Of a stretch of 32,000 bases of DNA, positions 5,701 through 30,460 are shown piece by piece (within the stretch, counting starts at the first letter, position 1; each line of letters begins with the position of its first letter). Source of the DNA: Desulfotalea psychrophila LSv54 (GTDB lineage Bacteria; Desulfobacterota; Desulfobulbia; Desulfobulbales; Desulfocapsaceae); assembly GCF_000025945.1 (NCBI RefSeq), contig NC_006138.1:1650001-1682000 (forward strand). Reading direction: 5' to 3'. Made by a program: the position numbers and the translations under genes. The notes under the pieces are model-generated. The model ran no database searches. It was given only the letters and a program-made list of their open reading frames with translations, and was not told the DNA's origin.

Positions 5701-6405
5701 ATGAAAGATATACAAAATCAAAGAGATACCCGCCAGGTGGATATTCGCAAGGTTGGGGTGAAAACAGTATCTTACCCAATTGTTGTTTTGGATAAGGCCC
5801 AGAAAAAGCAACATACCATTGCTCAGGTCAATATGTATGTGAATTTGCCGCATCATTTCAAGGGCACTCATATGAGTCGTTTTGTCCAGATTCTTGCCGA
5901 GTGTCATGGTGAGATAGATTTACAAAACTTCATCAAGATTCTTGAAAAAATGAAGGAGAGACTTTCGGCTGCGGCTTCGCATCTGGAAATGTTCTTTCCC
6001 TATTTCCTGCAACGTGATAAGGTTGATGCTACTGCCCTGTTAACAAAGTATAATTGTGGTCTTTGTGGCTCATTGCAAGAAGAGAGCAACCTGCGATTAA
6101 GTCTTGATATTCCTATATACTATTCAATAACCTCAGGGGAAAATAGGACTCGCTGGGGTCATGTCGATCTCTCTTTGCATCTGGAGAAATTTTACTGGAT
6201 TGAGGATATTATTGAGCAGGTTGAGGGGGCTATTGAGGTAAGTCCTATAGGGCATGATTCAGAGGTGGCTACCTCAACAACAGAGCTTGCCCATCGTATT
6301 GGTGGAGCCCTGGCGCTGATAGATGAGGTGGAGAGTTTTTCTTTGACAGTTCACCATCAAAGTGAAAATTTTAGCACCTTTGCTCAGCTTGAGTCTAACC
6401 TATAG
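5701..6405 (+). CDS. FolE2/MptA-like (COG1469, GTP cyclohydrolase IB family) protein with a divergent C-terminal half
   Basis: The N-terminal half matches family hallmarks (MKDIQNxxDxRxxxIxKVGV, KGTHMSRF). The C-terminal half lacks the motifs I recall as catalytic (see findings). There is no clear SD before the ATG at 5701. Confidence 0.7.
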   Translation: MKDIQNQRDTRQVDIRKVGVKTVSYPIVVLDKAQKKQHTIAQVNMYVNLPHHFKGTHMSRFVQILAECHGEIDLQNFIKILEKMKERLSAAASHLEMFFPYFLQRDKVDATALLTKYNCGLCGSLQEESNLRLSLDIPIYYSITSGENRTRWGHVDLSLHLEKFYWIEDIIEQVEGAIEVSPIGHDSEVATSTTELAHRIGGALALIDEVESFSLTVHHQSENFSTFAQLESNL

Positions 6406-8636: not shown

Positions 8637-8665
8637 CCTGTGGATAATTCTCCACGGGTTTTTTT
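8637..8665. terminator. Bidirectional intrinsic terminator between convergent glyS and the kinase-like gene
   Basis: CCTGTGGA / TCCACGGG is an 8-bp stem (one G-U on the plus strand) with a 6-nt loop. A T7 run follows and an A-rich run precedes. Confidence 0.75.
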
Positions 8666-8710: not shown

Positions 8711-9364
8711 TCAGTCCTTATTAAGCTGGAGGGTGATGCCATTCGGGCTAGGGGTGATTTTTGCTTGCAGGTGTGTAGCCAGTGATGCTATTGCTGCATC
8801 CTTTACGACCTTCTGCCCCTGACTGGCCAGAGTTTTTGCTGCCAATTGCAGAGAATATTGGGGGCCGGATATTTGCCAGGAAAGGACGATCTCTTCGCCC
8901 TCCGAGCATAGCTGATAGCTTTTGTCTAACAATAAGAAAAGAAGGGCTTCCAGGATTGGCAGGGAATGATGAATCTCTACCTGTGCCGGGCATTCCAGGC
9001 GGACGGTAATATTTTTGGCAAGAGCCTTTTTTTCGCTGAGTTCGATGCAGAATCCGATTAACTCTTGCCCGGAGATAGGGCCCCGTCCTCTGTCTGTGCT
9101 ATGGGCAAGCATGTTCATTCTTTGTACAATCTTATTAGATCGTTTTACCTGCTTATGGATACCTGCCGTTGCCTTTTGGACACGGCTGATTTCAATAGTG
9201 CCTTCATCTGCCCCAAGCAGGGCAAAATCTTCCAGTAGACCTGCGTGTTCGTTGATTATGGCCAGAGTGTTTTTGATTTCATGGGAAATCGAAGCGAAAA
9301 CCTCTGAAAATACCTCAAGACAAATCTGATGAGCCTCTTTTTGTTGAACCATGTTTTTCCCCAT
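8711..9364 (-). CDS. Histidine-kinase-like protein with a DHp/H-box but degenerate ATP-binding domain (candidate ChpT/Spo0B-type phosphotransferase)
   Basis: It has the H-box FASISHEIKNTLAII and is 217 aa, with no TM or sensor domain. I could find no N-box Asn and no G1 (DxGxG) or G2 (GxGxGL) motif. It starts 2 nt after the upstream receiver gene. Confidence 0.7.
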   Translation of the reverse strand: MGKNMVQQKEAHQICLEVFSEVFASISHEIKNTLAIINEHAGLLEDFALLGADEGTIEISRVQKATAGIHKQVKRSNKIVQRMNMLAHSTDRGRGPISGQELIGFCIELSEKKALAKNITVRLECPAQVEIHHSLPILEALLFLLLDKSYQLCSEGEEIVLSWQISGPQYSLQLAAKTLASQGQKVVKDAAIASLATHLQAKITPSPNGITLQLNKD

Positions 9365-9366
9365 TT

Positions 9367-9768
9367 TTAGGCTTCTTCTGTTGTTGATTTTGTAAATGCG
9401 CCTTCTATTTTTTCGAGGAGGAGATGGAAGTCAACGGGTTTCATGAGATAGTCAAAGGCACCACGTTTTATTCCTTCACTGCCACTTGCAGAAGAGCCAT
9501 GCCCTGTAAGAATAATGACCTCGGTAGCCAGGCCTTTTCCCTTGATATAGCTGAGCAATTCGAGGCCATTGATATCCGGCATTCTCAGGTCAACGATGAT
9601 GACATCAAAAGAATTCTTTCCGATCAGATCAATGGCGGCTTGACCGGAGCTTGCCATTTCAGCTTTATACTGTCGTAGGTTGAGGCGGGTCATAAGGGTG
9701 TCGGCAAATTCAATTTCATCATCGACAATAAGTACCTTAATTTCTTTTTTATTATTAGTTTTCTTCAT
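9367..9768 (-). CDS. Single-domain response regulator (receiver only, 133 aa)
   Basis: KVLIVDDE, the phospho-acceptor context VIIVDLRMPDINGLE, ILTGHG and a conserved K (YLMKP) are present. The ATG at 9768 overlaps the kinase stop by 14 nt. The track's longer ORF (to 10053) runs inside the kinase gene and is rejected. Confidence 0.9.
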   Translation of the reverse strand: MKKTNNKKEIKVLIVDDEIEFADTLMTRLNLRQYKAEMASSGQAAIDLIGKNSFDVIIVDLRMPDINGLELLSYIKGKGLATEVIILTGHGSSASGSEGIKRGAFDYLMKPVDFHLLLEKIEGAFTKSTTEEA

Positions 9769-11473
9769 TTTTTCCCAGTGCTGGTATGGTGATGGTAAAG
9801 GCTGTACCCCCGCCAATATGGGACTGGACGATGATGTCGCCACCCATTTTTTTAACAAGTCCATAGGTGATTGAGAGGCCAAGCCCTGTGCCTTTGCCTG
9901 TTTCTTTTGTGGTGAAAAATGGTTCAAATATGTGGGGGAGGTACTCCTTTGATATGCCCTCGCCTGTATCCTGAATAATAATTTGTACCTCTTCTGCAAG
10001 CAGATGGGTGGTGATGGTAATATTACCGTCGTCTGGAGTAGCATCAATGGCATTATTTATAATGTTTAGGAAGACCTGTTGGAGTTGTACATTGTTGCCA
10101 TAAACGTCGGGCAAACCTCCTTCAAGTCGGAGAACTAGATTGATTTTACTATACATTATAGAATTTTCTAAGAAAGAAAGTACGTCACGAATGATATCAT
10201 TGATTTGAACCTCCCTGAGCTCAACCTCTCCGCGTCTGGCAAAGCCAAGTAGGCGGTGGGTGATTGTTTTGCATCTCTCTATATTTTGGTCAATTGATTT
10301 CAGGCACTTGCTGATGGCTGCCCTATGTTCAAAGTCTGGGGAGAGGCTCAGTAGATCTTCTGCCAGGCCATTTTTTTGATTAACAATAGCAAGGGGATTG
10401 TTAATTTCATGGCCAACACCTGCGGCCAGCCGACCAATGGAGGCAAGTTTGTCGGTGTGCTCAGCCTCTTGGAGGAGAGCGATTTGGATGTCATCTGTTT
10501 TGCGAATGAGATCTTTTAGGGCGCAGGCAATGGCGTAAACAACCGCAGTGCTGGTCAGGAGGCAAGCACTGAGAATGAGGAAAAGCCTGGTGCAAAAAGA
10601 TGTCCACTGTTTATGGGCAAGGTATTTTTTTTCAATGAGCACCAGAGACCAGGGGCTGTTGATGATTTTGCCTATTGCATAGAGGCTGTGGGCATGTGTT
10701 GCCGAGTTGTTTTTATTGCTAGGGTGCAAGATGTCTGGATCATATTTTGAGAGAGGAGGACCAAAAATAGTTGATGCTGTTTGGATAATATTGTTGTCGT
10801 CAATTAGAAAGAGATCTTCCGAAGCCTTGGTTTTGATGGTTTGCACGATTTTTTCGAGGGAGGTGGCGTTTATGGTCGCCCGTAGTATCCACAGTTTTTG
10901 TCTGATAGGATCATAGCTGCTTACGGCTATGGCGAAGTGGGGCACCTTACGGTGTCCCAGGTAGACCTGGCTGATATAAAGACCTTTCTTCGTTACGATT
11001 TCAAGCCAATCTTCCCGGCTATAATCTTCTCCATAGAGACCATAGGGACCAGAGTAGGCCTGTTGTATTCCTGTGTCATCAATAACGCCAATATCTGCAA
11101 TAAAGTTATACTGTTGTTTAATTAGGGCGAGAAGGCTATCTATATTGCCGTCTTCTGTGAGATCCTGAAAGGTGTCATTTATAGAGATAAAATATACCAC
11201 TGATTTAACATTGTCTATCATGGCCGTAAGTGAGCCAACGGACCCATCAAGCCGCCATTTTATTTGCGCCTGTTCCTCGGTTTGTAACAGGCTGACGTAG
11301 TTTTGGTAGCTCAGTAGGGAGATGAGCAGGGCCGGCCCCCAGGCTATAAGAAGCATGGTGAAAAAGAGGAGTTGGCGGAGCCTGCGATAATCCCTGCCAC
11401 CTGCTTCCTCCCTTGCCTGGGAGCTGAGCAATTTCGGGGTTATTTTTTTTATAAATGTCATGAAAAAATTCAT
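9755..11473 (-). CDS. Sensor histidine kinase with a large periplasmic Cache-like domain
   Basis: Two TM segments flank a domain of about 270 aa that looks extracytoplasmic. These are followed by the H-box GVGHEINNPLA, the N-box NNAIDA, G1 DTGEGI, FTTK and G2 GTGLGLS. Confidence 0.9.
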   Translation of the reverse strand: MNFFMTFIKKITPKLLSSQAREEAGGRDYRRLRQLLFFTMLLIAWGPALLISLLSYQNYVSLLQTEEQAQIKWRLDGSVGSLTAMIDNVKSVVYFISINDTFQDLTEDGNIDSLLALIKQQYNFIADIGVIDDTGIQQAYSGPYGLYGEDYSREDWLEIVTKKGLYISQVYLGHRKVPHFAIAVSSYDPIRQKLWILRATINATSLEKIVQTIKTKASEDLFLIDDNNIIQTASTIFGPPLSKYDPDILHPSNKNNSATHAHSLYAIGKIINSPWSLVLIEKKYLAHKQWTSFCTRLFLILSACLLTSTAVVYAIACALKDLIRKTDDIQIALLQEAEHTDKLASIGRLAAGVGHEINNPLAIVNQKNGLAEDLLSLSPDFEHRAAISKCLKSIDQNIERCKTITHRLLGFARRGEVELREVQINDIIRDVLSFLENSIMYSKINLVLRLEGGLPDVYGNNVQLQQVFLNIINNAIDATPDDGNITITTHLLAEEVQIIIQDTGEGISKEYLPHIFEPFFTTKETGKGTGLGLSITYGLVKKMGGDIIVQSHIGGGTAFTITIPALGKNEEN

Positions 11474-11554
11474 AGGTTGAAGATCTCATTATGAAGATAT
11501 TATTTAGTTTCAGAATAAATGTCGTACCTTCAAAAACTGTTTTTTTATCTGAGA

Positions 11555-11588
11555 GCCACGGAACAGAAATTTTTTTCTGATCCGTGGC
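11555..11588 (-). other. Long stem-loop between the DASS transporter gene and the sensor kinase gene (possible internal attenuator or processing site)
   Basis: GCCACGGA-CAGAAA / TTTCTG-TCCGTGGC arms form about 14 bp with one T-T mismatch. No tight U-tract follows on the minus strand. Confidence 0.4.
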
Positions 11589-11649
11589 CTTTATTATGTT
11601 CCATCCCACTTAACAAAAAAGAGGATGTTACTTTTTATGAAGTCTTCCT

Positions 11650-13170
11650 TTAGATATATATCTTCATACCCATGAGTGGCCAGATAAATTGTACTGAAAT
11701 CCAGACAACAACCATCAAGACTATACTCGCCGGGATGCCATAGAGTACGAATTGTCCTGTGGTGAATTGCTTGGAATTATAAGCAATTGCGTTTGGAGCT
11801 GCTCCCACCAGAAGGAGAAAGGGCATTCCTGCTGTGACCAGTGACGAGAAGAGAATCACCTCTCCGGTAACGCCCAGGTATGGAGCAATAACCAGGGCTA
11901 CGGGCAGTGAGATGGCGATGGCTGCCACATTCATAATGAAGTTGGTCATTATCATGACGAAGAAGGCCATGCCAAGGATGAAGACAATGGCCGGCGCATC
12001 GGTGAAGAGCTGAAGCCAGTTAACGGCAAGCCACTTTGCCGCCCCCGTATCCCAGAGGCAAAAACCAATGGACATGGCACCTGCAAAGAGAAGTATGATG
12101 TTCCAGGGAATCTCTTCAAGGTCATCGATATCTAAAATGTTAAAGATAAAAAAGCAGATGGTGCCTACCAGCATTACCCCCGTTTTGTCAAAATTGGCGA
12201 AAATAGGGACAAAATTTTTCAGGGCAATGACCAGAATAATTAAGAAGACGATCATAAGGGCAATTATTTCGTTTCGGGTCCAGGCCCCGAGTTCTATATA
12301 CATTTTTTTGGATCTTTCCTGGAGGCCCGGGATACTGTCTTTTTCGGGTTTGCAGAATACCATGAAATAGCCCCAGAGCAGGAAGACCATCAGCCAGCCA
12401 ATGGGGAACATGTACATGGTTAATTCGAAAAATGAGATGTCAATATTGGTGATATCTTTGTAGAAACCAAGGGCTACAGCCCCACGTGCGGCCCCCAGCA
12501 GGGTGACAATACTGCCGGCCCCGGCAACGAAGGCCATACCGATAAAGAGTCCTCGACCAAAGCGGGTTTTGTCTCCCTCCTTGTCCACGTAGAGAGCATG
12601 GATGGTCATGAGGAGTGGAAACATTGTTGCTGCCACCGCCGTGTGGGCCATGAGATGGGTAAGGGCTGCCGTCATAACAAAGCAACCGAGATAGATCCTG
12701 CTCGTCTTCTCACCGATTATTGAGAGCATCTTGTAGGCGATTCTTTTGGTCAGGCCTGTCTTGGTAAAGACCATGCCGATGACAATGGAACCAAAGATAA
12801 AGAGCACCGATGGATCCATGAAATCTTTGAAAGCAATCTTGGCTGGTCGAATAAGAAAGAGTGCCTGAGCCGCGCCAATGGCAAGGCTGGTGACGCCAAT
12901 GGGGACAACTTCAAAAACCCACCAGATTGCGGCGAGGCCAAAGAGGGCAAGCGCTCCCTTTGCTTCGTGGCTGAGGGGAAACTCTGTGCCGGCGGGGTCG
13001 ATTGCCGGTGCCCAGTTTGGGGCATAGTAGATTGCCAGGAAAACACCAAGTCCAAGCAGGAGGAAAAAAATTCTTTTTATATCAATTTTCGTTGTTGAGG
13101 GTGTGTCTTTTCCGGAGCTTTCCTTTTGTAGGAGCTGATTATCACTTGCATCTATTTGTGATGCTGGCAT
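11650..13170 (-). CDS. DASS/SLC13-family anion:sodium symporter (divalent anion permease)
   Basis: A 506-aa polytopic membrane protein with internal two-fold architecture. Its C-terminal hairpin motif GAAPNAIAY resembles the DASS (S/A)xPN signature. A GGAGG RBS lies 5 nt before the ATG at 13170. Confidence 0.8.
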   Translation of the reverse strand: MPASQIDASDNQLLQKESSGKDTPSTTKIDIKRIFFLLLGLGVFLAIYYAPNWAPAIDPAGTEFPLSHEAKGALALFGLAAIWWVFEVVPIGVTSLAIGAAQALFLIRPAKIAFKDFMDPSVLFIFGSIVIGMVFTKTGLTKRIAYKMLSIIGEKTSRIYLGCFVMTAALTHLMAHTAVAATMFPLLMTIHALYVDKEGDKTRFGRGLFIGMAFVAGAGSIVTLLGAARGAVALGFYKDITNIDISFFELTMYMFPIGWLMVFLLWGYFMVFCKPEKDSIPGLQERSKKMYIELGAWTRNEIIALMIVFLIILVIALKNFVPIFANFDKTGVMLVGTICFFIFNILDIDDLEEIPWNIILLFAGAMSIGFCLWDTGAAKWLAVNWLQLFTDAPAIVFILGMAFFVMIMTNFIMNVAAIAISLPVALVIAPYLGVTGEVILFSSLVTAGMPFLLLVGAAPNAIAYNSKQFTTGQFVLYGIPASIVLMVVVWISVQFIWPLMGMKIYI

Positions 13171-13278
13171 GGTTGCCTCCAGGGATATAAGTCAGGCACT
13201 AAAGCTTGTCAGGCGCAGAGGGCACACCTCAGCTGTCTGTTTTAGTTGCACCTTTAATTTTTTGTAAGGTCGGGGTTG

Positions 13279-13719
13279 TTACCAGGCCCTGTTCTTTAAG
13301 ATCTCTTTGATCGCTTCTGTGGCTTTTTCTTGTGAGATAAGGATTCTTTTATCTTTTGCCTCACTGATTTTTTCTAGAAGTTTTGGGAGATCCAGAGGTT
13401 TTTCTAAGAAATCTTCAGCACCGAGCTTTATTGCCTCTGTACTTGCCTGTATGGTGCCATGGCCACTGAGCATGATTATTTCAGTGTCCGGTGCCGTTTC
13501 CTTGAGCTTTTTCAAGGTCTCCAGGCCATCCATGCCGGGCATGGTGAGGTCGAGGACAACGACATCAAATTTTTCCTTTTCGATAAGTTTTAAGGCATCC
13601 TGGCCGCAGGTGGATGTGCTGACGGTGAGGCCTCGTATTTGTAGACGATTTGAAAGAGTCTCAATAAAATCCTTTTCATCATCAACCAAAAGTACCCGTG
13701 CTTTTATTGTCTCTGCCAT
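13279..13719 (-). CDS. Single-domain response regulator (receiver only, 146 aa)
   Basis: VLLVDDE, VVVLDLTMPGMDGLE, MLSGHG and LEKP are present. There is a GGAG RBS and no output domain. Confidence 0.9.
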   Translation of the reverse strand: MAETIKARVLLVDDEKDFIETLSNRLQIRGLTVSTSTCGQDALKLIEKEKFDVVVLDLTMPGMDGLETLKKLKETAPDTEIIMLSGHGTIQASTEAIKLGAEDFLEKPLDLPKLLEKISEAKDKRILISQEKATEAIKEILKNRAW

Positions 13720-13730
13720 GGTCTGCTCCT

Positions 13731-14942
13731 CTATGCTGATTTTTGCTGATGGCTTTTATTGGCAGCATTGATGGCTGCAGAAAGTTCCTCTATATCGACG
13801 GGCTTATTCATATAGGCAAATGCCCCAAGGCTCATACACTCCTTCTCATCTTCCAGATCACCATGTCCGGTGAGGATAATGATCTCGATTTCGGGGTATT
13901 GCTTTTTTGTTCTGTGGAGAACCTCTACACCATGCATGCCTGGCATTTTGAGGTCAAGAACCATGACATCGGGCCGGTCCTCTTTGAGAAGTTCCAAGGC
14001 GTCTTCGCCGTTATAGACACCGTAGGTGCCGACATCGCGACTAATAAGACGCTGTGAAACTGTTTGGACAAACTCCTGTTCATCGTCAACAAAGAGTACC
14101 TTGGATGGTAACTCAAATTTTTGTTGGCGGTATATAGAATCCGAATAATCAATCGCCTTGCTTGCCTTTATATCCTTTACTCCGGCAATATCTGAGATGA
14201 GCGATGTGAGATCAGCTGTGAGCTTGTCAAAGTTGAAAACAGTTTTATGAACCTTTAAGTCAACACTCCCTCCCTGGCAGGTAACGGTGAGGGCATGGCC
14301 ATTCTCTAACAATTTTTGCTCAACTTCCGCAGCAGAGAGCATGTCCTTGATTGCCTGGAGGGAATCGGCTGATCGGAGCACTGAAGTTTTTCTATAAAAG
14401 CTGGTTATTTGATTGACAATCTCTTTGAGGTTTTGCCCATTATGTGGAATAATTATATCGTAGAGGGAGGAGTCAAAAGCCTCTTTCTTATAGAGAAAGT
14501 CTGACCAGCTATAGGCTTTACTGTCCTCTTGTCTAATTCTTTTCAGGGCTTCTTTTACAGAAAACCCCTCAGCCTGTGCCTGTTGAACTCTTTCCTCTCT
14601 GTTGCCTGTGACAAGTACGGTGAGGACCTCTGTTATTTTTAGTGGAATAAGCAGGCTGTGGTAGCCAAAAAAGAGATATTTATCGCCGGTACTTAATTTC
14701 TTGACCAAGATCTGGCGGAACATGTTTATGGCTTTCTCTTTTTTCAAGGTGAATTGATTAAAGACTGATGTCTTGTCTGTGAGCAATGTTCTTAGTGGAT
14801 CTTCCTGGCAATGAAAATGGCTGGCAGTTTCTTTAATAAGATCTTCGTCGCCGTATTTCGTTAGCTGGAGCTGTCCGGACAACTCATTAATAATTTCTGT
14901 GCCTTGGCTGAATTCGTATGGGAAAAAAGCAATTGATGACAT
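13731..14942 (-). CDS. Cytidylate-kinase-like (degenerate P-loop) domain protein with a C-terminal receiver domain
   Basis: About 190 aa at the N-terminus resemble the cytidylate-kinase-like family pattern (REERV...EGxSxKEALKRIRQxD...YDIIIP), but the Walker A position reads FSQGT. A middle segment of about 90 aa is unassigned. The C-terminal REC has VLFVDDE, VMVLDLKMPGMHG, ILTGHG and MNKP. The ATG at 14942 follows AGAGGAG; the track's TTG start at 14972 is less likely. Confidence 0.75.
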   Translation of the reverse strand: MSSIAFFPYEFSQGTEIINELSGQLQLTKYGDEDLIKETASHFHCQEDPLRTLLTDKTSVFNQFTLKKEKAINMFRQILVKKLSTGDKYLFFGYHSLLIPLKITEVLTVLVTGNREERVQQAQAEGFSVKEALKRIRQEDSKAYSWSDFLYKKEAFDSSLYDIIIPHNGQNLKEIVNQITSFYRKTSVLRSADSLQAIKDMLSAAEVEQKLLENGHALTVTCQGGSVDLKVHKTVFNFDKLTADLTSLISDIAGVKDIKASKAIDYSDSIYRQQKFELPSKVLFVDDEQEFVQTVSQRLISRDVGTYGVYNGEDALELLKEDRPDVMVLDLKMPGMHGVEVLHRTKKQYPEIEIIILTGHGDLEDEKECMSLGAFAYMNKPVDIEELSAAINAANKSHQQKSA

Positions 14943-15765
14943 AAATTTCTCCTCTATTTTAAATTGGTTCAAATACCGTAATAATTTTTTTTGTAGTCAG
15001 TTAGGGTGATTTGAAAATTTCGCTAGATCTCAGGTAATCACTGATTTTGAGGTATTTATAAAATTATTTTGAATAACCAAGAAATTTTAAGAAAAGGCTA
15101 TTTTTCAAGGTTCCCTTTAGCAATCAGCTATCTATGCATTTGCCGGTTTGTCATAGGTCTTTGCGTATCAATAAAAAATAGTTGCAGATAATCGTCTCTT
15201 TTATAAAGGAGGCAAAATACTTTTTAAGTTGCTACTTAAATAGTATATGAGCAAATTAAAGGTTAATTCAAATAAAAAAAGTGTTTTTCCAGCGGACCAT
15301 TAGTAACGTTTATTGTGACAATACGCTTATTTACGGTATGGTCGTTCTTTGGAGGTCACCTAGACGGTCTCTGGCAGGGCCTAGGCGTGCAGGGGGTACA
15401 AGGTGAATAACGGGTTATGGATTGTCGTTTCGGTTGCGATTTGAGGAAACCAGAGGTGTTTGAGGCGAGGTTGTAAAGTTATTTTTGTGTGAGAAACTTC
15501 TCTTATGTTCTCATTTGGTAAGCTAAATTGAGAGTTCTATTTGTTAAACATAGGTCAGTAGCAGGTTGCATTTTATATTTGATGATATAGGAAATGCTTC
15601 TGAGAGATGGCTGTAACGGTATATTGTAAAATAGTTTAGGAATGATGGTTGTAAGGGGGAAAATTGTGTCAAGGGGACCTTTTTGTGGGAAGGAGAAAAA
15701 AATATATATAGTGACTCCCAATTCGGTTTGAAAAATTGTAATTTCCTTATCTGGTTGGTAGAAGG

Positions 15766-22053: not shown

Positions 22054-22746
22054 ATGGCAGGTATAGTAAAAATTACTTATAGTGGCCAGGTAGTTAAATA
22101 TATTAAAGATATGGTCCTTAAGGGGGAGCTTGCCCCTGGCGATCAGGTTAAAGAAGCAGAAATATCAAAAAAATTAGATATTAGCCGTGCCCCTGTTCGA
22201 GAGGCAATGCAAATACTTATAAACGAAGGTCTGGTTTCTTCTAAGCCTCAAAAGAGAAAATATATAACCGCATTAACCTCGAAAGAAATTATTGATAGTT
22301 ATTTTACGGGCGGTGTTCTTGAGGCAGCAGCGGTTGCCAAGTCCCTGGACGCCTATTTAGCAAAAGATATTGTAAGGCTCGAAAAAATTGTAGAAAAAAT
22401 GCATGATCTCGCTGACTCGGACAGTCGTAGCGAACAGCTTGCCACCCTCGACAATCATTTTCACGACGTGCTGTTTTCCCGTGTTGATAATCAACTATTG
22501 ATTGAGCTTTGTCGGCGATCCTGTCAGGAGATTTCAAAATTTTTGCTATTTCGTTATTGGCGTAATCTGTTTTCAGTGGCAGAGGTCTATTCCCGTCATA
22601 AGGCAATTGTTGATGCTATAAAAAATGGTGACCTCGTGGAATTAGAGAAAGTCATTAGAAAGCATTATAATGATTCAGGACTGAGAATGTCACGCTATGG
22701 TATAGATAAAATTGATTTAACAAATAAAGGAATAAATCAAGACTGA
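22054..22746 (+). CDS. GntR-family transcriptional regulator, FadR/FCD subfamily
   Basis: The N-terminal winged HTH is GELAPGDQVKEAEISKKLDISRAPVREAMQILINEGLV. It is followed by an all-helical domain of about 150 aa with His residues typical of FCD domains. Confidence 0.9.
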   Translation: MAGIVKITYSGQVVKYIKDMVLKGELAPGDQVKEAEISKKLDISRAPVREAMQILINEGLVSSKPQKRKYITALTSKEIIDSYFTGGVLEAAAVAKSLDAYLAKDIVRLEKIVEKMHDLADSDSRSEQLATLDNHFHDVLFSRVDNQLLIELCRRSCQEISKFLLFRYWRNLFSVAEVYSRHKAIVDAIKNGDLVELEKVIRKHYNDSGLRMSRYGIDKIDLTNKGINQD

Positions 22747-22766: not shown

Positions 22767-22857
22767 CGAGCACACTGTTGGCGTCCCCTAAGCAAAGAAT
22801 ATCTTCGACCTGTAATCATCATTCCAAGTAGCCTCTTAAGTTTATTCCTTTGGCTGG
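22767..22857 (+). repeat. 91-bp direct repeat, copy A (left flank of the IS)
   Basis: It aligns base-for-base, without gaps and with scattered substitutions, to 23909-23999 (CGAGCAYACTGTTGGCGTCCCCTAA...TGTAATCATCATTCCAA...CTTTGGCTGG). Confidence 0.75.
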
Positions 22858-22878: not shown

Positions 22879-23909
22879 GGGCGTTGTTGAACAAATCCAA
22901 ACGGCAAGTTTTCAATGCCCCATCGCTGTACTGTTCTAACGACAAACAGCTCCTCTAACGGACATTCCCAAAGCAGTTATCTTGCTTAATGCTTTGACGC
23001 AAGCCGACTTACCACTTGCGCATTGTAATCGCGAAGGCTCAATTTGCCACTGATCAACTGTTTGTAGCGATACATCGCTGTTTCAGCAAGAGACCTTTGA
23101 TGATACCCCTGTGCTTGCTTTCCACTCTTTCAACTCACCTTTTCGCAATGCTCCTATAGCCTCATTTCTTGGATGGCCTTCCTTCCACATAGCAGCATTT
23201 TTCCGTGGTGGATGAGCAGACACCTTTGATTCCAATAATTTCATAGCACTCTTTCGTATCGTATGCACCATTGTCTGATATCTGCTTTATGCGTCGTCGA
23301 AGAGGATTCAGTAGATGCCCTAAAACTTTGGAGTCATGAACGCGCTCTAGCGAGATTTCACCACTTAGGCGATCAGTCTCGGCATCGATTACAAGGTGAA
23401 TCTTACGCTAGGTTTTACGTTTGGAAGCCCCATGTTTTCTGACGCTCCACTCTCCTTCTCCATAGACTTTAAGCCCCGTCGAATCGATATGCTTAATCGG
23501 CCCACGACTTGGCAGCCTATAATTCACCTTAACAGTTTGGGCACGTCTGCTAACAGGTGTATCAGGTGCCTGGAGGTCGATATCTATCAGTTCAAAAAGT
23601 GAATTCAGAAAACCTTCAGTACCTCTGAGAGATAGGCCGTAAATGGTTCCACATTAAACAGGTGGTTATTGCATCATCAGTGTACTTGCGGCTACGGCCA
23701 CGCTGTCCCGATGGTGTCGTGCTGTACCAACTTTCAATTGCTTTCTTGTCCACCCAAAATGTCAACGCCATTGCTTCAGTGTCCTGTTATATTCCGGCCA
23801 ATTTTTGATCTTTCCCCTGCTCTCTCATTGCTCCTCCAATGTTTTCTGTATGTTACAAGAAAACATTGGAGGAGCAATGCTAGCAATTTCTATTTGTGCA
23901 ACAAGGCCC
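22879..23909 (-). mobile_element. IS903-group (IS5-family) insertion sequence, about 1.03 kb, with an inactivated transposase
   Basis: The terminal inverted repeats are GGGCGTTGTTGAACAAAT (22879-22896) and, on the reverse complement at 23892-23909, GGGCCTTGTTGCACAAAT (16/18 identical, close to the IS903 IR GGCTTTGTTGAATAAAT). The internal coding sequence resembles the IS903 transposase. No 9-bp target duplication is present. Confidence 0.8.
22986..23828 (-). pseudogene. IS903-like DDE transposase, broken by several frameshifts and stops
   Basis: Pieces in three frames match the transposase:
- IKNWPEYNRTLKQ
- LTFWVDKKAIESWYSTTPSGQRGRSRKYTDDAITT
- IDSTGLKVYGEGEWSVRKHG
- DNGAYDT
- SAHPPRKNAAMWKEGHPRNEAIGALRK...WK
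- GYHQRSLAETAMYRYKQLISGKLSLRDYNAQVV. Confidence 0.75.
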
Positions 23910-23999
23910 GAGCATACTGTTGGCGTCCCCTAATCAAAGAACACCTTCGCTTTGTAATCATCATTCCAATCAGTCTTTTAAGCTTGTTTCTTTGGCTGG
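23909..23999 (+). repeat. 91-bp direct repeat, copy B (right flank of the IS)
   Basis: See copy A; it has the same orientation. Confidence 0.75.
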
Positions 24000-24105
24000 C
24001 TGCCCCACAAAGATGTTGCCTCAGAGCTCATGAGAAACGTCTAAAAAAGACCAATTTCCCACAATTTAATATCTTGACAAACAAAAAAGGATACGTTAAT
24101 CCTGT

Positions 24106-24129
24106 ATAGCAAATGTCGACATTTGACAT
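24106..24129. promoter_or_regulatory. Candidate GntR-type operator (site 2) upstream of ridA copy 1, downstream of a TTGACA box (24074-24079)
   Basis: ATGTCGACAT (24113-24122) is followed by TTGACAT. The left heptamer is degenerate (ATAGCAA). Confidence 0.55.
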
Positions 24130-24178
24130 TTGGCACAGGTTGTTTAAACGTCTTTCATCAAACTTTGGAGTTATGTAA

Positions 24179-24574
24179 GTGGCAACTATGATTGAAAAAA
24201 AGATTATTGAGACAGAGGCTGCCCCAGCAGCAGTAGCAGCGTATTCACAGGCTGTGCAAGCGGGGAATTTATTATTTACCTCAGGGCAGTTACCCCTTGA
24301 TCCTTCATCGGGAAAAATAGTTACGGGGGATATTGTTGCCCAGGCCCATCAGGCGATAAAAAACCTTATTGCCATCGTTGAGGCTGCGGGAAGTAGCATC
24401 GACGATGTCATAAAAGTAACTGTTTATCTTGCAGACGTTAAAGATTCTGCAGCAGTTAACGAAGTCTATAACCAATATTTTTTTCAGCCCTATCCAGCTC
24501 GTAGTGCCTTTCAAGTAGCGGCACTCCCTCTGGCTGCAGGTTTAGAGATTGAAGCAATAGCAATTGTTAAATAA
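24179..24574 (+). CDS. ridA: RidA-family reactive enamine/imine deaminase (copy 1)
   Basis: YjgF/YER057c/UK114 hallmarks are present: APAAVAAYSQAV, LFTSGQLPLDP, and the conserved Arg in PYPARSAFQVAALP. The GTG at 24179 is 8 nt after GGAG; the ATG at 24188 is an alternative start. Confidence 0.9.
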   Translation: MATMIEKKIIETEAAPAAVAAYSQAVQAGNLLFTSGQLPLDPSSGKIVTGDIVAQAHQAIKNLIAIVEAAGSSIDDVIKVTVYLADVKDSAAVNEVYNQYFFQPYPARSAFQVAALPLAAGLEIEAIAIVK

Positions 24575-24599
24575 ATTTTTCATAAAGGATAAAAAAGTC

Positions 24600-25598
24600 A
24601 TGAATCTCACCCAATTCCCAAGAAGAAATTATCTCCAAGGACCTACTCCTATTGAAGCAGCCCCAAGGTTTTCTAAGGCCCTGGGTGGTAAGGTAAATGT
24701 TTTCATCAAGCGTGATGACCTGTTGCCCGGTTGTGCCGGTGGTAATAAGACCAGAAAATTGGATTTTTGTATTGCTGATGCGATAGAGAAGGGCGCTGAT
24801 ACGATTATTACCTGTGGTCCTGTTCAGTCTAATCACTGTCGTTTGACCCTTTCTTGGGCAGTTAAGGAAGAGATGGATTGTCATCTTATACTTGAAGAGC
24901 GTGTTCCGGGAAGCTATAAAGAAGATGGTTCCGGTAACAACTTCCTTTTCAATCTGATGGGCGTAAAGAGCACTCAGGTTGTTCCTGGTGGTTCCGATAT
25001 GATGGGTGAGATGGAGAAGCTTGCCAAGGAGCTTGAGGCTCAGGGCAAAAAACCTTATATCATTCCAGGCGGTGCCTCTAACGTTCTTGGCGCGACCGGT
25101 TATGTTGCCTGTGCCCAGGAAATTCAACAACAGCTCTTTCAACAAAACATTAATATAACTGATATAGTAGTCCCGAGTGGTAGCGCCGGTACCCATGCAG
25201 GTGTCGCCGTCGGTATGTACGGAATTAATTCCGGTATTAGGGTAAGCGGTATCAATGTAAGTAAGCCTAAGGATGTCCAGGAAGAGAATGTTTATAAGTT
25301 GGCATACGAAACTGCAAAAGCAGTAGGTGTGTGCGGAGAGCTTCCACGCGGTGAGATAACCTGTTTTGATGGCTATGTAGGTGCAGGTTATTCTCTGCCC
25401 ACCGATTCAATGGTTGAGGCAGTAAAGCTTCTTGCTCGAACTGAGGCAATCCTGCTTGATCCTGTTTATTCCGGCAAGGTTATGGCTGGTATGATCGACC
25501 TTATTCGAAACGATTATTTCGCTCCAGGAACAAATGTTTTATTTCTGCATACCGGTGGATCTCCCGCCCTCTATGCATATACCGATACGTTTAAATAG
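24600..25598 (+). CDS. PLP-dependent deaminase/lyase of the D-cysteine desulfhydrase / ACC deaminase / cysteate sulfo-lyase family (copy 1)
   Basis: The PLP-lysine motif GGNKTRKLDF is present, together with a Gly-rich phosphate loop (SGSAGTHAG) and the C-terminal LHTGG. Length is 332 aa from the ATG at 24600. Confidence 0.88.
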   Translation: MNLTQFPRRNYLQGPTPIEAAPRFSKALGGKVNVFIKRDDLLPGCAGGNKTRKLDFCIADAIEKGADTIITCGPVQSNHCRLTLSWAVKEEMDCHLILEERVPGSYKEDGSGNNFLFNLMGVKSTQVVPGGSDMMGEMEKLAKELEAQGKKPYIIPGGASNVLGATGYVACAQEIQQQLFQQNINITDIVVPSGSAGTHAGVAVGMYGINSGIRVSGINVSKPKDVQEENVYKLAYETAKAVGVCGELPRGEITCFDGYVGAGYSLPTDSMVEAVKLLARTEAILLDPVYSGKVMAGMIDLIRNDYFAPGTNVLFLHTGGSPALYAYTDTFK

Positions 25599-25707: not shown

Positions 25708-26976
25708 ATGAAACTGTATCACAAAATAATGATTGGCTTAGTTCTTGGTGTAATTGCCGGTCTGATTCTTGGAGAAAAAGCCGAATACTTAAAGCCTATC
25801 GGTGATATCTTCATTCGTTGCCTTCGTTTAATAGTTGTGCCCCTGATTCTTTCAACTCTTATTACAGGTGTTGTCAGCACTGGAAATATTAAAAATCTAG
25901 GAAAAACAGGAATTAGTACTCTGGTGTACTTCATGGTGACAACCACCTTGGCTGTTTGTATTGGATTACTTATTGCAAATATCTTTCAACCTGGAGCAGG
26001 ACTTTCCCTTGGTGAACTTAAAGTTTTTAAAGTTCCCGATACGCCCGGGCCTGCCCAGATGATCGTCGGCATGTTTCCACTAAACCCGATGGAGGCTCTT
26101 GCAAAAGGCAATGTCCTGCAGATCATAATTTTTGCATTACTCTTTGGAGCCGGACTCTCCATGGCCGGCGACAAAGGTAAACCCATTGCTGATTTTTTCC
26201 AAAGTCTTGCGGAAGTAATGTTCAAAGTTTCTGATCTCGTTATTAGCTTTGCTCCATATGGTGTCTTTGCTCTTATTGCATGGACAACCGGAAAATTCGG
26301 GCTGGATATATTGATGCCAATGGGGAAACTCATTATGTGTACTCTTCTTGCCGCTTTCGTACATATTATTGTATCTTATACCCTAATTGTGGCAACTGTC
26401 GCACGTATTTCTCCTTTAGCTTTCCTGAAAAAGACGATGGAGCCAGCGCTGGTAGGTTTGTCGACCTGTAGTGCCGCCGCCGCGTTCCCGTTTTCCATGC
26501 GTGCACAAAAACAGCTGGGTGTTTCACCAAAAGTCTCAGGGTTTACACTGCCCATGGCGCTTACCATAAATATGGACGGAACAGCCCTGTACCAGGCGGT
26601 TGCAGCTATGTTTATCGCTAATGCTTATGGAATTGATCTGTCATTGACCCAGCAGGGAACAATTGTGGCAACGGCAGTTTTAGCATCGGTTGGAACTGCG
26701 AGTATTCCAGGTGGGGGATTGATTATGCTGACCATGGTGCTCCAGTCGGTTGGTTTACCTCTTGAGGGGATTGCTATTGTTGCCGGAATTGATCGAATTT
26801 TGGATATGTTCCGCACAACAACTAATATCTTCGGTGATAACTCTGCCGGTGTCGTAGTTGCGTCTTTAGTAGGTGAGTTAGATCGTGAAATAGCAAACAC
26901 CCCTCTCGATGAATTGGAGCAAGGCAGTGGCGTTCACCTAGACAGTGACGGTCATATTGTTGACGAATTGGGATAA
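25708..26976 (+). CDS. Dicarboxylate/amino acid:cation symporter (DAACS, GltP/DctA/SstT-like)
   Basis: A 422-aa protein with typical DAACS motifs (SSAAxLP-like STCSAAAAFP, TINMDGTALYQ, DRxxDMxRT as DRILDMFRTTTN). A GGAGGA RBS lies 8 nt upstream. Confidence 0.9.
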   Translation: MKLYHKIMIGLVLGVIAGLILGEKAEYLKPIGDIFIRCLRLIVVPLILSTLITGVVSTGNIKNLGKTGISTLVYFMVTTTLAVCIGLLIANIFQPGAGLSLGELKVFKVPDTPGPAQMIVGMFPLNPMEALAKGNVLQIIIFALLFGAGLSMAGDKGKPIADFFQSLAEVMFKVSDLVISFAPYGVFALIAWTTGKFGLDILMPMGKLIMCTLLAAFVHIIVSYTLIVATVARISPLAFLKKTMEPALVGLSTCSAAAAFPFSMRAQKQLGVSPKVSGFTLPMALTINMDGTALYQAVAAMFIANAYGIDLSLTQQGTIVATAVLASVGTASIPGGGLIMLTMVLQSVGLPLEGIAIVAGIDRILDMFRTTTNIFGDNSAGVVVASLVGELDREIANTPLDELEQGSGVHLDSDGHIVDELG

Positions 26977-27734: not shown

Positions 27735-27825
27735 TGTTGCACTTATTGTACTAAGCCAGCTCTGAAAAGTGCCATTTTTCATATTTTAATATCTTGACAA
27801 ATAAAAAATAATACGGTAACTCTGT

Positions 27826-27849
27826 ATGTCGAATGTCGACATTTGACAT
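27826..27849. promoter_or_regulatory. Candidate GntR-type operator (site 3, most complete) upstream of ridA copy 2, downstream of a TTGACA box (27794-27799)
   Basis: ATGTCGAATGTCGACATTTGACAT is a 24-bp palindrome, 22/24 self-complementary, centred on ATGTCGACAT (27833-27842). Confidence 0.6.
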
Positions 27850-27891
27850 AGGTTGTTTAAACGTCTTTCATCAAACTTTGGAGTTATGTAA

Positions 27892-28287
27892 GTGGCAACT
27901 ATGATTGAAAAAAAGATTATTGAGACAGAGGCTGCTCCAGCAGCAGTAGCAGCGTATTCACAGGCTGTGCAAGCGGGGAATTTATTATTTACCTCAGGGC
28001 AGTTACCCCTTGATCCTTCATCGGGGAAAATAGTTACCGGGGATATTTTTGCCCAGGCTCATCAGGCGATAAAAAACCTTATTGCCATTGTTGAAGCTGC
28101 AGGAAGTAGCATCAATGATGTCATAAAAGTAACTGTTTATCTTGCAGACATTAAAGATTCTGCAGCAGTGAACGAAGTCTATACCCACTATTTTTTTCAG
28201 CCCTATCCAGCTCGTAGTGCCTTTCAAGTAGCGGCACTCCCTCTGGCTGCAGGTCTGGAGATTGAAGCAATAGTAATTGTTAAATAA
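27892..28287 (+). CDS. ridA: RidA-family reactive enamine/imine deaminase (copy 2)
   Basis: Differs from copy 1 at 6 of 131 residues. The motifs are the same. Confidence 0.9.
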   Translation: MATMIEKKIIETEAAPAAVAAYSQAVQAGNLLFTSGQLPLDPSSGKIVTGDIFAQAHQAIKNLIAIVEAAGSSINDVIKVTVYLADIKDSAAVNEVYTHYFFQPYPARSAFQVAALPLAAGLEIEAIVIVK

Positions 28288-28312
28288 ATTTTTCATAAAG
28301 GATAAAAAAATC

Positions 28313-29311
28313 ATGAATCTCACACAATTCCCAAGAAGAAATTATCTCCAAGGACCTACTCCTATTGAAGCTGCACCAAGGTTTTCTAAGGCCCTGGGTG
28401 GTAAGGTAAATGTTTTTATTAAGCGTGATGATCTGTTGCCTGGTTGTGCTGGTGGTAATAAGACTAGAAAATTAGATTTTTGTATTGCTGATGCGATAGA
28501 GAAGGGCGCTGATACGATTATTACCTGTGGTGCTGTTCAGTCTAATCACTGCCGTTTGACCCTTTCTTGGGCAGTTAAGGAAGAGATGGATTGTCATCTT
28601 ATACTTGAAGAGCGTGTTCCTGGAAGCTATAAAAAAGATGGTTCCGGTAACAACTTTCTTTTCAATCTGATGGGCGTAAAGAGCACTCAGGTTGTTTCTG
28701 GTGGTTCCGATATGATGGGTGAGATGGAAAAGCTTGCCAAGGAGCTTGAGGCTCAGGGCAAAAAACCTTATATCATTCCAGGCGGAGCCTCTAATGCTAT
28801 TGGAGCAACCGGTTATGTTGCCTGTGCCCAGGAAATTCAGCAACAGCTTTTTGAGCAAAACATTAATATAACTGATATAGTTGTCCCGAGTGGTAGTGCC
28901 GGTACCCATGCTGGTGTTGCCGTTGGTATGTACGGAATTAATTCGGGTATTACAGTAAGTGGTATCAATGTAAGTAAGCCTAAGGCTGTCCAGGAAGAGA
29001 ATGTTTATAAATTGGCCAAGGAAACTGCAAAAAGAGTAGGTGTCCGCGGAGAGTTTCCACGCGATGAGATAACCTGTTTTGATGGCTATGTCGGTGCAGG
29101 GTATTCGTTGCCCACCGATTCAATGGTTGAGGCTGTAAAGCTTCTTGCTCGAACTGAGGCAATCCTGCTTGATCCTGTTTATTCCGGCAAGGTTATGGCT
29201 GGTATGATCGACCTTATTCGAAACGATTATTTTGCCCCGGGGGCAAATGTTTTATTTCTGCATACCGGTGGATCTCCCGCCCTCTATGCATATACCGACA
29301 CGTTTAAGTAA
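28313..29311 (+). CDS. PLP-dependent deaminase/lyase of the D-cysteine desulfhydrase / ACC deaminase / cysteate sulfo-lyase family (copy 2)
   Basis: Differs from copy 1 at 14 of 332 residues. The GGNKTRKLDF motif is the same. Confidence 0.88.
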   Translation: MNLTQFPRRNYLQGPTPIEAAPRFSKALGGKVNVFIKRDDLLPGCAGGNKTRKLDFCIADAIEKGADTIITCGAVQSNHCRLTLSWAVKEEMDCHLILEERVPGSYKKDGSGNNFLFNLMGVKSTQVVSGGSDMMGEMEKLAKELEAQGKKPYIIPGGASNAIGATGYVACAQEIQQQLFEQNINITDIVVPSGSAGTHAGVAVGMYGINSGITVSGINVSKPKAVQEENVYKLAKETAKRVGVRGEFPRDEITCFDGYVGAGYSLPTDSMVEAVKLLARTEAILLDPVYSGKVMAGMIDLIRNDYFAPGANVLFLHTGGSPALYAYTDTFK

Positions 29312-29414: not shown

Positions 29415-30410
29415 ATGAATTTTTTCAAAAAGCTCGTAGCAACTGCTGTACTTAGTCTATGTTTTGGTGTCACAGGCGCTGTTGCCGGCCCCACGGTTAT
29501 TAAACTCGCGCATCCCAATTTACCCCAGCATCCCATGGGGCAAGCATTCATTAAGTTTAAAGCCCTGGTAGAAGAGAGAACAAACGGTGAGTTTCGAGTA
29601 GATATTTTCGATAGCTCCAAGTTTGGTAATTTCGATAGTGTTGTTCAAGGATTACAGCTTAATATGCTCCAGATGGGGTCAGCTGCAACACCAAATCTTT
29701 CACCTTTTTCCGATGAATTCCTTATCTTTGATCTTCCCTTTCTTTTCCCAAGTTATGAGGCGGCAGATAAGATCACCGATGGCCCCATCGGTATGAATGC
29801 AACCAAGGCGCTGGAACCAAGTGGTATTATCGGTCTTGGCTATATCGAGATTGGTTTTCGTAATCTTTGGAATAACAAGCGTGCTGTGACAACCCTTGAA
29901 GATGCAAAAGGCTTGAAAATTCGCTCTACTCCTTCTAAGGCCCACATCGGGACTCTTAAGGCCCTTGGTATGAATCCAACTCCAATTTCATGGGGTGAGG
30001 TTTATACTGCCCTGCAACAAAAGACTGTTGATGGAATTGATATTGATTTGAACCTTGCGTGGCATAATAACTTCCCAGAAGTTAACAACCATTTGACTAT
30101 CGTGAACAGCCTGTATAGTCCTCATCTCGTGATGATCTCTAAACGCTTTCTTGATAGCTTAAACCCTGAAAACAGAGAGATTATTCTCTCTAGCTTTCAA
30201 GAGGCGAAGTTGTATGAGCGTAAGTTGATTCGTGATGGCGAAGCAGAAATTCTTGCTCAGCTTGAAGGGAAGGGCGTGACCGTAACTACTCTTTCTCCCG
30301 AAGAACGTCAGCGTTGGGCAGAGAAGACTGCAGTTGTTTATGAGCAGTTTCAGGATCGCATTGGTAAAGACCTCATCGAACAGGCAAGAGCCACCATGGC
30401 TGTAAAGTAG
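29415..30410 (+). CDS. TRAP transporter substrate-binding protein (DctP type)
   Basis: It has a signal peptide (ATAVLSLCFGVTGAVAG) and is 331 aa. DctP-family features are present, including the conserved Arg context (GLKIRS). An AGGAGA RBS is present. Confidence 0.9.
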   Translation: MNFFKKLVATAVLSLCFGVTGAVAGPTVIKLAHPNLPQHPMGQAFIKFKALVEERTNGEFRVDIFDSSKFGNFDSVVQGLQLNMLQMGSAATPNLSPFSDEFLIFDLPFLFPSYEAADKITDGPIGMNATKALEPSGIIGLGYIEIGFRNLWNNKRAVTTLEDAKGLKIRSTPSKAHIGTLKALGMNPTPISWGEVYTALQQKTVDGIDIDLNLAWHNNFPEVNNHLTIVNSLYSPHLVMISKRFLDSLNPENREIILSSFQEAKLYERKLIRDGEAEILAQLEGKGVTVTTLSPEERQRWAEKTAVVYEQFQDRIGKDLIEQARATMAVK

Positions 30411-30424
30411 AGGTATTTGAAAAC

Positions 30425-30460
30425 AAATAACCAAACAGATAGGTATTTGTTTGGTTATTT
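30425..30460 (+). other. Intercistronic stem-loop between the TRAP binding-protein and permease genes
   Basis: Perfect 13-bp inverted repeat AAATAACCAAACA / TGTTTGGTTATTT with a 10-nt loop. It is AT-rich with no long U-tract. Confidence 0.5.

Follow-up and report, generated by a model that had tools for sequence, protein, structure and literature searches.

A stretch of 32,000 nucleotides (nt) from Desulfotalea psychrophila LSv54 (NCBI RefSeq assembly GCF_000025945.1, contig NC_006138.1, positions 1,650,001 to 1,682,000 of the forward strand; hereafter the window, in whose coordinates all positions are given) was analysed around a cluster of six genes, G1 to G6, at positions 8711–14942. The cluster encodes a sensor histidine kinase (HK), three proteins with receiver (REC) domains, a transporter, and a small protein that keeps a kinase-type histidine but has lost the ATP-binding motifs, and it is a stripped-down member of a module that is conserved across Desulfobacterota and tied to putative sulfate/oxyanion transporter genes. 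An initial annotation, made from the sequence alone, had described six co-directional genes on the minus strand; all six open reading frames (ORFs) were confirmed, and the accompanying list of parts proved correct when compared with Pfam and NCBIfam. The features are as follows:

13731–14942, minus strand: G1, 403 amino acids (aa), cytidylate-kinase-like (CK2-like) domain plus receiver (Pfam PF13189, PF00072)
13279–13719, minus strand: G2, stand-alone receiver of 146 aa (Pfam Response_reg)
11650–13170, minus strand: G3, DASS/SLC13 permease of 506 aa (Pfam PF00939, Na_sulph_symp / CitMHS)
9755–11473, minus strand: G4, sensor histidine kinase of 572 aa (Pfam dCache_1 + HisKA + HATPase_c)
9367–9768, minus strand: G5, stand-alone receiver of 133 aa (Pfam Response_reg)
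8711–9364, minus strand: G6, 217 aa (213 aa from the ATG at 9352), weak HisKA match and family alignments
8640–8655, minus strand: intrinsic-terminator-like hairpin followed by a T-run, 3' of G6, closing the G4-G5-G6 unit
14943–15765, minus strand: AT-rich, gene-free region of 823 nt upstream of G1

The 14-nt overlap between G4 and G5 reported initially was read straight from the sequence. The 2-nt gap reported between G5 and G6 holds if G6 starts at the ATG at 9364, but not for the database gene call of 213 aa, which starts at the ATG at 9352, leaves a gap of 14 nt to G5, and has a ribosome-binding site (GGGGA) that is better than that of the upstream ATG. The other gaps measure 11 nt (G1–G2), 108 nt (G2–G3), and 176 nt (G3–G4). 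No structured RNA was matched by Rfam in the window, the region 14943–15765 included.

Predicted properties of the six proteins

G4 was matched in Pfam to HisKA and HATPase_c at E=3e-29, and NCBIfam places the kinase core in the AtoS/ZraS/NtrB-like group. Hydrophobic segments at about aa 35–54 and 297–316 flank a periplasmic dCache_1 domain (about aa 56–295, 10589–11308), there is no HAMP domain, His355 (10409–10411) lies in a helical hairpin, and the catalytic domain is complete (N474, G1 box at residue 502 (DTGEGI), FEPFF, and G2 box at residue 528 (GTGLGL)). Judged by its H, N, G1, F, and G2 boxes and its predicted transmembrane sensor, G4 is a class I sensor histidine kinase. The sensor domain is about 49% identical to those of relatives, and a homologue search with this domain alone returned a single protein. 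Residues that are invariant over all three cluster types described below include D127, Y151, W156, S168, R175, H179, Q231, and T232, and would be compatible with a common small ligand.

G6 scored 24.7 bits on the Pfam HisKA model, just below the cut-off of 26.9, and gave no HATPase_c match. Its initial description as an H-box protein without ATP-binding motifs agrees with the family alignment, in which the His is kept and the N, G1, F, and G2 boxes are lost. The invariant His28 (9281–9283, motif SISHEIKN) is located in a helical hairpin; across 32 sequences, the family carries the signature SASISHEIKNxLAIINENAGLLED and the invariant residues A24, H28, E29, N32, A41-L44, D46, Q72, R75, H88, and D91, and across 84 sequences the His, Glu, and Asn of the H-box are conserved at ≥97%. 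The AlphaFold2 (AF2) model (predicted local distance difference test (pLDDT) 90.8) consists of helices 2–54 and 59–91 (pLDDT about 90) followed by a compact alpha/beta domain. Foldseek matched this model to the histidine-kinase cores of HK853, the pseudokinase DivL, SrrB, and ZraS (E about 1e-10), and the family profile matched ZraS, ThkA, LvrB, KinB, and HK853 among PDB sequences, with the ZraS alignment stopping before the G1 box. When 72 G6 proteins and 72 cognate kinase cores were aligned jointly, the hairpins superposed well and the catalytic-domain motifs did not: the N-box Asn, DxGxG, the F box FEPFF, and GxGLGL are all gone from G6, and about 20 residues of the ATP lid are deleted relative to the cognate kinases. 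From this loss of motifs, G6 is predicted to be unable to bind ATP.

The hairpins of G6 and G4 are 34% identical (E=3e-7), and the helix beneath the His, a docking surface, hardly differs between the kinase family (HEINNPLAIINEKAGL) and the G6 family (HEIKNxLAIINENAGL). Because of the profile and structure matches, the superposing hairpins, and this identity, G6 is taken to be a paralogue of an AtoS/ZraS-like kinase core, most plausibly that of its own neighbour G4. ChpT and Spo0B were absent from the profile matches to PDB sequences (E≤0.01) and from the Foldseek top 50; since no sequence homology to either was detected, the resemblance to ChpT is taken as convergent, and G6 as an analogue of ChpT and Spo0B instead of a member of either family. 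The initial label "ChpT/Spo0B-like" thus describes the anatomy of the protein (hairpin, invariant His, degenerate catalytic domain) but not its sequence ancestry, and by that anatomy G6 is a candidate histidine phosphotransfer protein of the ChpT/Spo0B type. The family is large, with 1,122 clusters at 50% identity (E≤1e-30, exhaustive search), almost all of 200–245 aa; a word-indexed search returned 91 homologues, and an exact look-up with the G6 of the window gave no entry. G6 itself is 35–43% identical to its relatives, and the proteins are soluble with a conserved N-terminal extension of their own.

The hairpin identity and the shared motif HEIxNxLAIINExAGL, which makes mixed four-helix bundles conceivable, would also suit a non-catalytic regulator that heterodimerises with, or docks on, the G4 hairpin and tunes the balance of kinase and phosphatase activity, with the His being no phosphoryl carrier; the genes for G4 and G6 are, moreover, always adjacent. 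We regard such a role as quite improbable, given that an inert scaffold needs no invariant His, Glu, and Asn in its H-box, that G6 is a soluble protein with its own conserved extension, and that the known kinase inhibitors Sda and KipI have unrelated folds. A function of G6 in phosphotransfer is preferred over regulation by docking.

The sub-features of the receiver proteins are as follows:

14388–14942, minus strand: G1 aa 1–185, N-terminal cytidylate-kinase-like domain without P-loop
14157–14369, minus strand: G1 aa 192–262, middle alpha-beta-beta-alpha-beta domain (AF2 model)
13743–14105, minus strand: G1 aa 280–400, C-terminal receiver with phospho-acceptor Asp330 (13953–13955)
13549–13551, minus strand: G2 phospho-acceptor Asp57
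9589–9591, minus strand: G5 phospho-acceptor Asp60

All three window receivers contain the acidic pair, phospho-Asp, Thr/Ser, and Lys of the active site, which are conserved in 61/61 sequences for the G1 receiver, 21/21 for G2, 64–65/65 for G5, and 52–54/54 for the class of receivers encoded after G6 in SulP-type clusters. Output domains, whether helix-turn-helix, AAA+, GGDEF, or of another kind, were detected in none of the receivers (Pfam at E≤0.01; G1 sub-domains at E≤10), NCBIfam matches were confined to the receiver portion, and G2 and G5 are too short to hold an output domain. This sets them apart from transcriptional response regulators of the OmpR/WalR, NarL, and NtrC types. The initial statement that the cluster has no DNA-binding output was checked by these scans and stands for the receivers and the window, but does not extend to the family, as 50 of the 61 loci counted below encode a regulator. 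The receivers sort into stable orthology classes in which G2 is the counterpart of the receiver after G6 in SulP-type clusters (class-to-class BLAST medians of 134–135 bits), so that these two cluster types share parts and differ in order. Helix alpha-1 is alike in all receiver classes. Of the 65 G5-class receivers, 64 have Tyr as the switch residue, which is variable in the SulP-type class after G6.

In G1, Pfam identified Cytidylate_kin2 at aa 12–165 (PF13189, E=1.9e-13; 51.4–53.8 bits at a cut-off of 28) and Response_reg at aa 282–392 (E=1.3e-27). The AF2 model shows three parts at moderate confidence (pLDDT 82.9). The N-terminus reads MSSIAFFPYEFSQGTE and the family consensus is FPCxxT or SGxFC, without GxxxxGK[ST]; no Walker A motif was found anywhere in the alignments of this kinase-like family, in which a KTSVFNxFTxEKE motif is invariant. 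The initial annotation had considered the domain as kinase-like; because a Walker A motif is missing, kinase activity is unlikely, and the domain is best regarded as a putative ligand-binding or interaction domain and not as an enzyme. Residue 9 (14916–14918) is Tyr; more than 90% of the family carries Cys at this position (FPC in DASS-type, SFC in SulP-type clusters), and the lineage may thereby have lost a residue of redox or ligand relevance. The middle domain has a BON-like topology in the AF2 model, an idea that rests on topology, with no BON match in Pfam even at E≤10. The N-terminal 275 aa gave chance-level matches to PDB sequences only (viral PB2, E about 0.05; uncharacterised 3FDI, E 0.65), and a Foldseek search with the full model was dominated by receiver matches, the nearest being Spo0F and NtrC-type receivers, and returned nothing on the N-terminal domains. 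Stand-alone cytidylate-kinase-like proteins of 264–274 aa without a receiver are encoded beside DASS-CBS-REC sub-clusters in three related loci (L012 and L014, 0–3.6 kb; L064), which shows that the kinase-like domain recurs with transporters independently of the receiver fusion.

G3 matched PF00939 (Na_sulph_symp) over residues 66–501 at E=2.6e-43 and reached 196.4 bits on the DASS model TIGR00785, about 2 bits below its cut-off of 198.6; among solved structures, VcINDY was its best match (E 1e-21).

Conservation of the gene neighbourhood

Relatives of G6 were sought in species-representative genomes. A scan of the genome contigs with the single G6 sequence returned no relatives, but an alignment-based scan yielded at least 409 confirmed ones, for which 80 loci were retrieved; further loci (L001–L006) came from look-ups of individual G6 homologues. 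Locus genes were tagged with phmmer and hmmsearch, and conservation was counted over 61 loci, those in which the upstream sequence spans at least 7.5 kb. Nearly all loci with G6 carry Desulfobacterota or deltaproteobacterial labels, the others being three metagenome bins with different phylum-level labels, and the lineages with the module include Desulfofustis, Desulfopila, Desulforhopalus, Desulfoprunum, Desulfobulbus, and many Desulfobacterales. Three types of gene order were distinguished (brackets mark optional genes):

Type A (DASS): CK2-REC > REC > DASS > PAS-sigma54 activator > dCache HK > REC > G6
Type B (SulP): TetR > SulP+STAS > CK2-REC > dCache HK > (REC) > G6 > REC
Type C (TauE): TauE > CBS > PAS-sigma54 activator > dCache HK > REC REC REC > (HK > REC) > G6 > REC

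The dCache kinase is present in 60/61 loci, where G6 comes after it, at least two stand-alone receivers in 57/61, a transporter (DASS, SulP, or TauE) in 56/61, the cytidylate-kinase-like protein in 53/61, and a cluster-encoded transcription factor (PAS-sigma54 activator or TetR) in 50/61. Non-conservation of the gene set, an objection already considered with the initial annotation, was checked in this way and fails. Because the same parts, in order, recur in dozens of genomes, the arrangement is far beyond chance. About ten SulP-type loci have no G5-class receiver (HK > G6 > REC) and type C carries a stand-alone version of the G1 receiver, and because of these variants the minimal core would consist of the kinase, G6, a G2-type receiver, and a G1-type receiver.

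The gaps of 108 nt between G2 and G3 and of 176 nt between G3 and G4 allow more than one transcript, and G1-G2-G3 and G4-G5-G6 could, on that ground, be two unrelated operons that are merely adjacent. Since all six gene families are found together in 21 DASS-type loci and, with SulP, in 32 more, spread over several Desulfobacterota families, chance adjacency is contradicted and was rejected as an extremely remote explanation; the six genes are treated here as one module.

The window corresponds to type A minus the activator gene, as do two Desulforhopalus loci (L019, L022). In the relatives, this activator comprises PAS, AAA+, and HTH_8 domains without a receiver domain, and nearly all type A loci have a sigma54-type promoter (TGGCA[TC]-N5-[AT]TGC[TA]) that is located, relative to the start codon of the G1 orthologue, about 75–95 nt upstream and from which most DASS-type relatives would transcribe G1, G2, and DASS. 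Neither the 823 nt upstream of G1 nor the DASS-kinase gap of the window contains a GG-N10-GC element, matches to the sigma54 consensus in the window are at chance level with none of them intergenic, and genes for CBS, TetR, or sigma54-activator proteins, present in many related loci, are lacking from all 32 kb. Because type A relatives carry both activator and promoter and the window has neither, this lineage has lost both while keeping all six genes intact.

Several further features were observed at these loci. A perfect 8-bp stem (gccacgga ... tccgtggc) lies at about 11573–11604, inside the 176-nt gap of the window. On the coding (minus) strand, the run that comes after it consists of A and not of T, and the stem may serve in processing or attenuation, or be left over from the lost activator-gene region. 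Many DASS-type relatives have a second classical pair directly after G6, consisting of a 4HB_MCP-type histidine kinase and a REC-sigma54 activator (L007, L008, L010, L013, L015–L019, L022, and L024, at about 10.7–13.7 kb), which is absent from the window. In TauE-type clusters, where three extra receivers precede G6, a sigma54-type promoter was seen about 275–290 nt upstream of a receiver gene in L005/L056, L027, L029, and L079, and about 54 nt upstream of one in L082; the promoter of L005 precedes a 63-aa ORF.

G3 is 75–80% identical to the DASS proteins of type A clusters and 67% (median) to the CBS-linked DASS proteins of Desulfobacterales, and the signalling proteins diverge much faster. 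Di- or tricarboxylates could take the place of sulfate as the sensed and controlled anion, in the manner of DctB/DctD or CitA/CitB, a question of signal and not of wiring. This has in its favour that the structural relatives closest to G3 are the dicarboxylate carriers VcINDY and NaDC3, that DctB is among the dCache kinases and DauA, a dicarboxylate carrier, belongs to the SulP family, that several G6 homologues were named "C4-dicarboxylate-specific histidine kinase" by the Joint Genome Institute (JGI), and that citrate synthase and TRAP transporter genes occur near some loci. It is nevertheless held to be unlikely, as the module also accompanies SulP+STAS and TauE-type permeases, is nearly confined to sulfate-reducing or sulfur-cycling Desulfobacterota, and has DASS orthologues that are 67–80% identical across orders. 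In addition, the transporters encoded by the clustered DASS and SulP genes are plentiful in proteomes and made constitutively (PMC11887813), and a passage of PMC5840216 that cites Tarpgaard 2017 describes transcripts of the clustered genes as responding to sulfate concentration. Because of this near-restriction, the three anion-carrier families, the conserved DASS protein, and the published data, links that are indirect but fit together, sulfate is most likely the signal and the transported anion, and G3 is a candidate sulfate transporter.

Proposed phosphoryl flow, its output, and alternatives

A His-Asp-His-Asp relay is the best-supported reading of the gene set, with a probability that we put at about 50%. 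G4 would sense a periplasmic anion, most likely sulfate, and autophosphorylate on His355. The phosphoryl group would then pass to a stand-alone receiver, for which G5 is the best candidate by its position and because its gene is translationally coupled to that of the kinase, from there to His28 of a dimeric G6 acting like ChpT or Spo0B, and would end on terminal receivers, namely G2 and/or the receiver domain of G1. Phosphorylation of G1 would put its kinase-like domain, which lacks a P-loop, and its BON-like domain into a different state, this output being the weakest step, and G1 and G2 would subsequently act on the transporter by protein-protein contacts; in relatives, the target may instead be the cluster-encoded PAS-sigma54 activator or TetR. 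The SulP-type order HK > REC > G6 > REC matches the proposed flow, and the nearly identical docking helix of kinase and G6, together with the alike helix alpha-1 of the receivers, is what a shared phosphotransfer network needs.

Several observations weigh against this scheme. G6 keeps HExxN, a HisKA phosphatase motif, so that a phosphatase role fits equally well; it has no sequence homology to ChpT or Spo0B; and the exact four-step order cannot be universal, given the approximately ten SulP-type loci without a G5-class receiver. The DASS and SulP families also hold dicarboxylate carriers (DauA in the case of SulP), which bears on the assumed signal. Finally, neither the aromatic switch residue nor the lack of a FATGUY motif, both applied as criteria for intermediate versus terminal receivers (PMC9981736), separates the two kinds of receivers here.

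Instead of passing phosphate through G6, the kinase could phosphorylate all three receivers directly, with the kinase-dead G6 serving as a RedE-like phosphatase or phosphate sink. RedE is unable to autophosphorylate; it is given phosphate by one receiver and removes that of a further, output-less one (PMC2755868). The receiver-docking helix differs little between the kinase and G6, and the loci with HK > G6 > REC have no intermediate receiver. H-E-x-x-N, invariant in G6, is the phosphatase motif of HisKA kinases. The His of G6 is, however, conserved in 84 sequences, although HisKA phosphatase activity often tolerates loss of the His, and the pseudokinase DivL has its His replaced; furthermore, 57/61 loci retain the G1 receiver together with two or more stand-alone ones, and the order HK-REC-G6-REC is conserved. 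With these points on either side, a phosphatase G6 without relay flow is the main, though rather unlikely, alternative, and the phosphorelay is retained for what follows.

With regard to output, the initial annotation had expected an endpoint that is post-translational and not transcriptional. This is not implied by the data, since 50/61 loci encode a PAS-sigma54 activator or TetR and a sigma54 promoter is conserved in relatives. Because the window has lost promoter and activator gene, a transcriptional output there would depend on a factor from another part of the genome. Retention of the module without a cluster-encoded transcription factor mildly favours a non-transcriptional component. A dedicated sulfate-sensing relay, in which G1 and G2 gate the adjacent sulfate transporter post-translationally and the end point is not a promoter, is a speculative extension that we consider doubtful; within it, the window would be a natural "transcription-free" version of the module, and if it were true, the first step of dissimilatory sulfate reduction would be tuned within seconds.

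Dissimilatory sulfate reduction begins with the uptake of sulfate and drives much of the carbon mineralisation in marine sediments. Because the module is confined to these bacteria, stands beside three candidate carrier families, and is very widespread, it is an obvious candidate for sulfate sensing and for the switching of uptake systems in sulfate reducers. The module would also provide a regulatory context for the uncharacterised Cytidylate_kin2 fold, and G6 would be the third independent histidine-kinase core recycled as a phosphotransfer protein, after Spo0B and ChpT.

The genes flanking the cluster are unrelated to it and comprise glyS, which is encoded on the opposite strand and convergent with G6 with the terminator between them, and genes for a DUF2238 protein and a GNAT acetyltransferase. 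Elsewhere in the window, a gene pair for RidA (L-PSP, 131 aa) and a pyridoxal-phosphate (PLP)-dependent enzyme (344 aa) is duplicated at 24113–25598 and 27826–29311, with the first 300 nt being 95% identical. Each copy is preceded by an element of about 85 nt (24045–24129 and 27765–27849; 81% identical, with TTGACA and a short palindrome), and the carriers that follow differ, being an SDF-family symporter (25708–26976) and TRAP DctP/DctQ (29415–30988), respectively. A GntR/FCD regulator is encoded at 22054–22746, and downstream of its gene a 91-nt direct repeat (85% identical) occurs at 22767–22857 and 23909–23999, 1,142 nt apart. A folE2-like ORF of 234 aa (5701–6405) matches only positions 1–141 of the 260-position GCHY-1 profile and may be truncated, fused, or frameshifted.

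Comparison with known systems

The closest published description concerns clusters of DASS or SulP transporters with Cache kinases in Desulfobacteraceae and other sulfate reducers, which were presented as a putative sulfate-uptake regulon with several response regulators, CBS proteins, a TetR repressor, conserved sensor domains, and sulfate as the proposed common effector (PMC11887813, Sci Adv 2025). The paper interprets them as two-component systems of the ordinary transcriptional kind, whose "WalR-type" regulators act on promoters (PMC11887813). The window shares the DASS gene clustered with a Cache sensor kinase and response regulators, and related loci show the same TetR-SulP and CBS-DASS arrangements. 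In contrast to the published clusters, the receivers of the window and their orthologues in about 60 loci have no DNA-binding domain, and no accessory CBS, TetR, or WalR-type regulator gene was found in the 32 kb of the window. A relay, an ATP-blind His-carrier protein, or a cytidylate-kinase-like receiver is not mentioned in that paper or its supplements, and full-text literature searches returned no paper with any of the three for these clusters. The initial view that the arrangement is not a described system is accordingly correct for the relay, the His protein, and the kinase-like receiver, but not for the outline of the cluster, which has been published. Receivers without a DNA-binding domain and an ATP-blind His protein change the published model of simple transcriptional two-component systems.

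ChpT of the Caulobacter CckA-ChpT-CtrA/CpdR relay is dimeric, has its His in an N-terminal hairpin and an atypical Bergerat fold with a remodelled ATP lid, does not autophosphorylate, and branches to two receivers, CpdR being the receiver-only one of them (PMC3433190). The same anatomy is predicted for G6 (AF2, Foldseek, alignment), but G6 has no detectable sequence homology to ChpT and its origin is taken to be independent. Moreover, G4 is not a hybrid kinase, the intermediate receiver would be a separate protein here, and no terminal regulator in the window cluster has a DNA-binding domain.

In the Spo0F-Spo0B-Spo0A relay of Bacillus, phosphate passes from a kinase to a stand-alone receiver, then to a dimeric hairpin His protein with a degenerate C-terminal domain, and on to a terminal receiver. 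The flow proposed here is the same, and the G1 receiver is closest in structure to Spo0F and NtrC-type receivers; on the other hand, Spo0A acts as a transcription factor, no sequence relation links G6 to Spo0B, and the genes studied here cluster with a transporter.

RedCDEF, the "four-component" system of Myxococcus xanthus, comprises a kinase, the non-autophosphorylating kinase-like RedE, and output-less receivers encoded together (PMC2755868), and the window cluster likewise groups a kinase, a kinase-like protein predicted not to use ATP (G6), and output-less receivers. The systems differ in that RedE is mainly a phosphatase and has retained a domain of the HATPase_c type, RedD is a dual receiver, the sensor is different, and there is no transporter link. 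DctB-DctD and CitA-CitB resemble the cluster in the periplasmic Cache/PDC kinase beside an anion carrier and in the AtoS/ZraS/NtrB-like kinase core, and differ in their single DNA-binding regulator and in having neither a His-carrier protein nor a kinase-like receiver. Taken together, the cluster is not categorically new: it is a phosphorelay variant with an independently evolved ChpT-like component within a partly described regulon.

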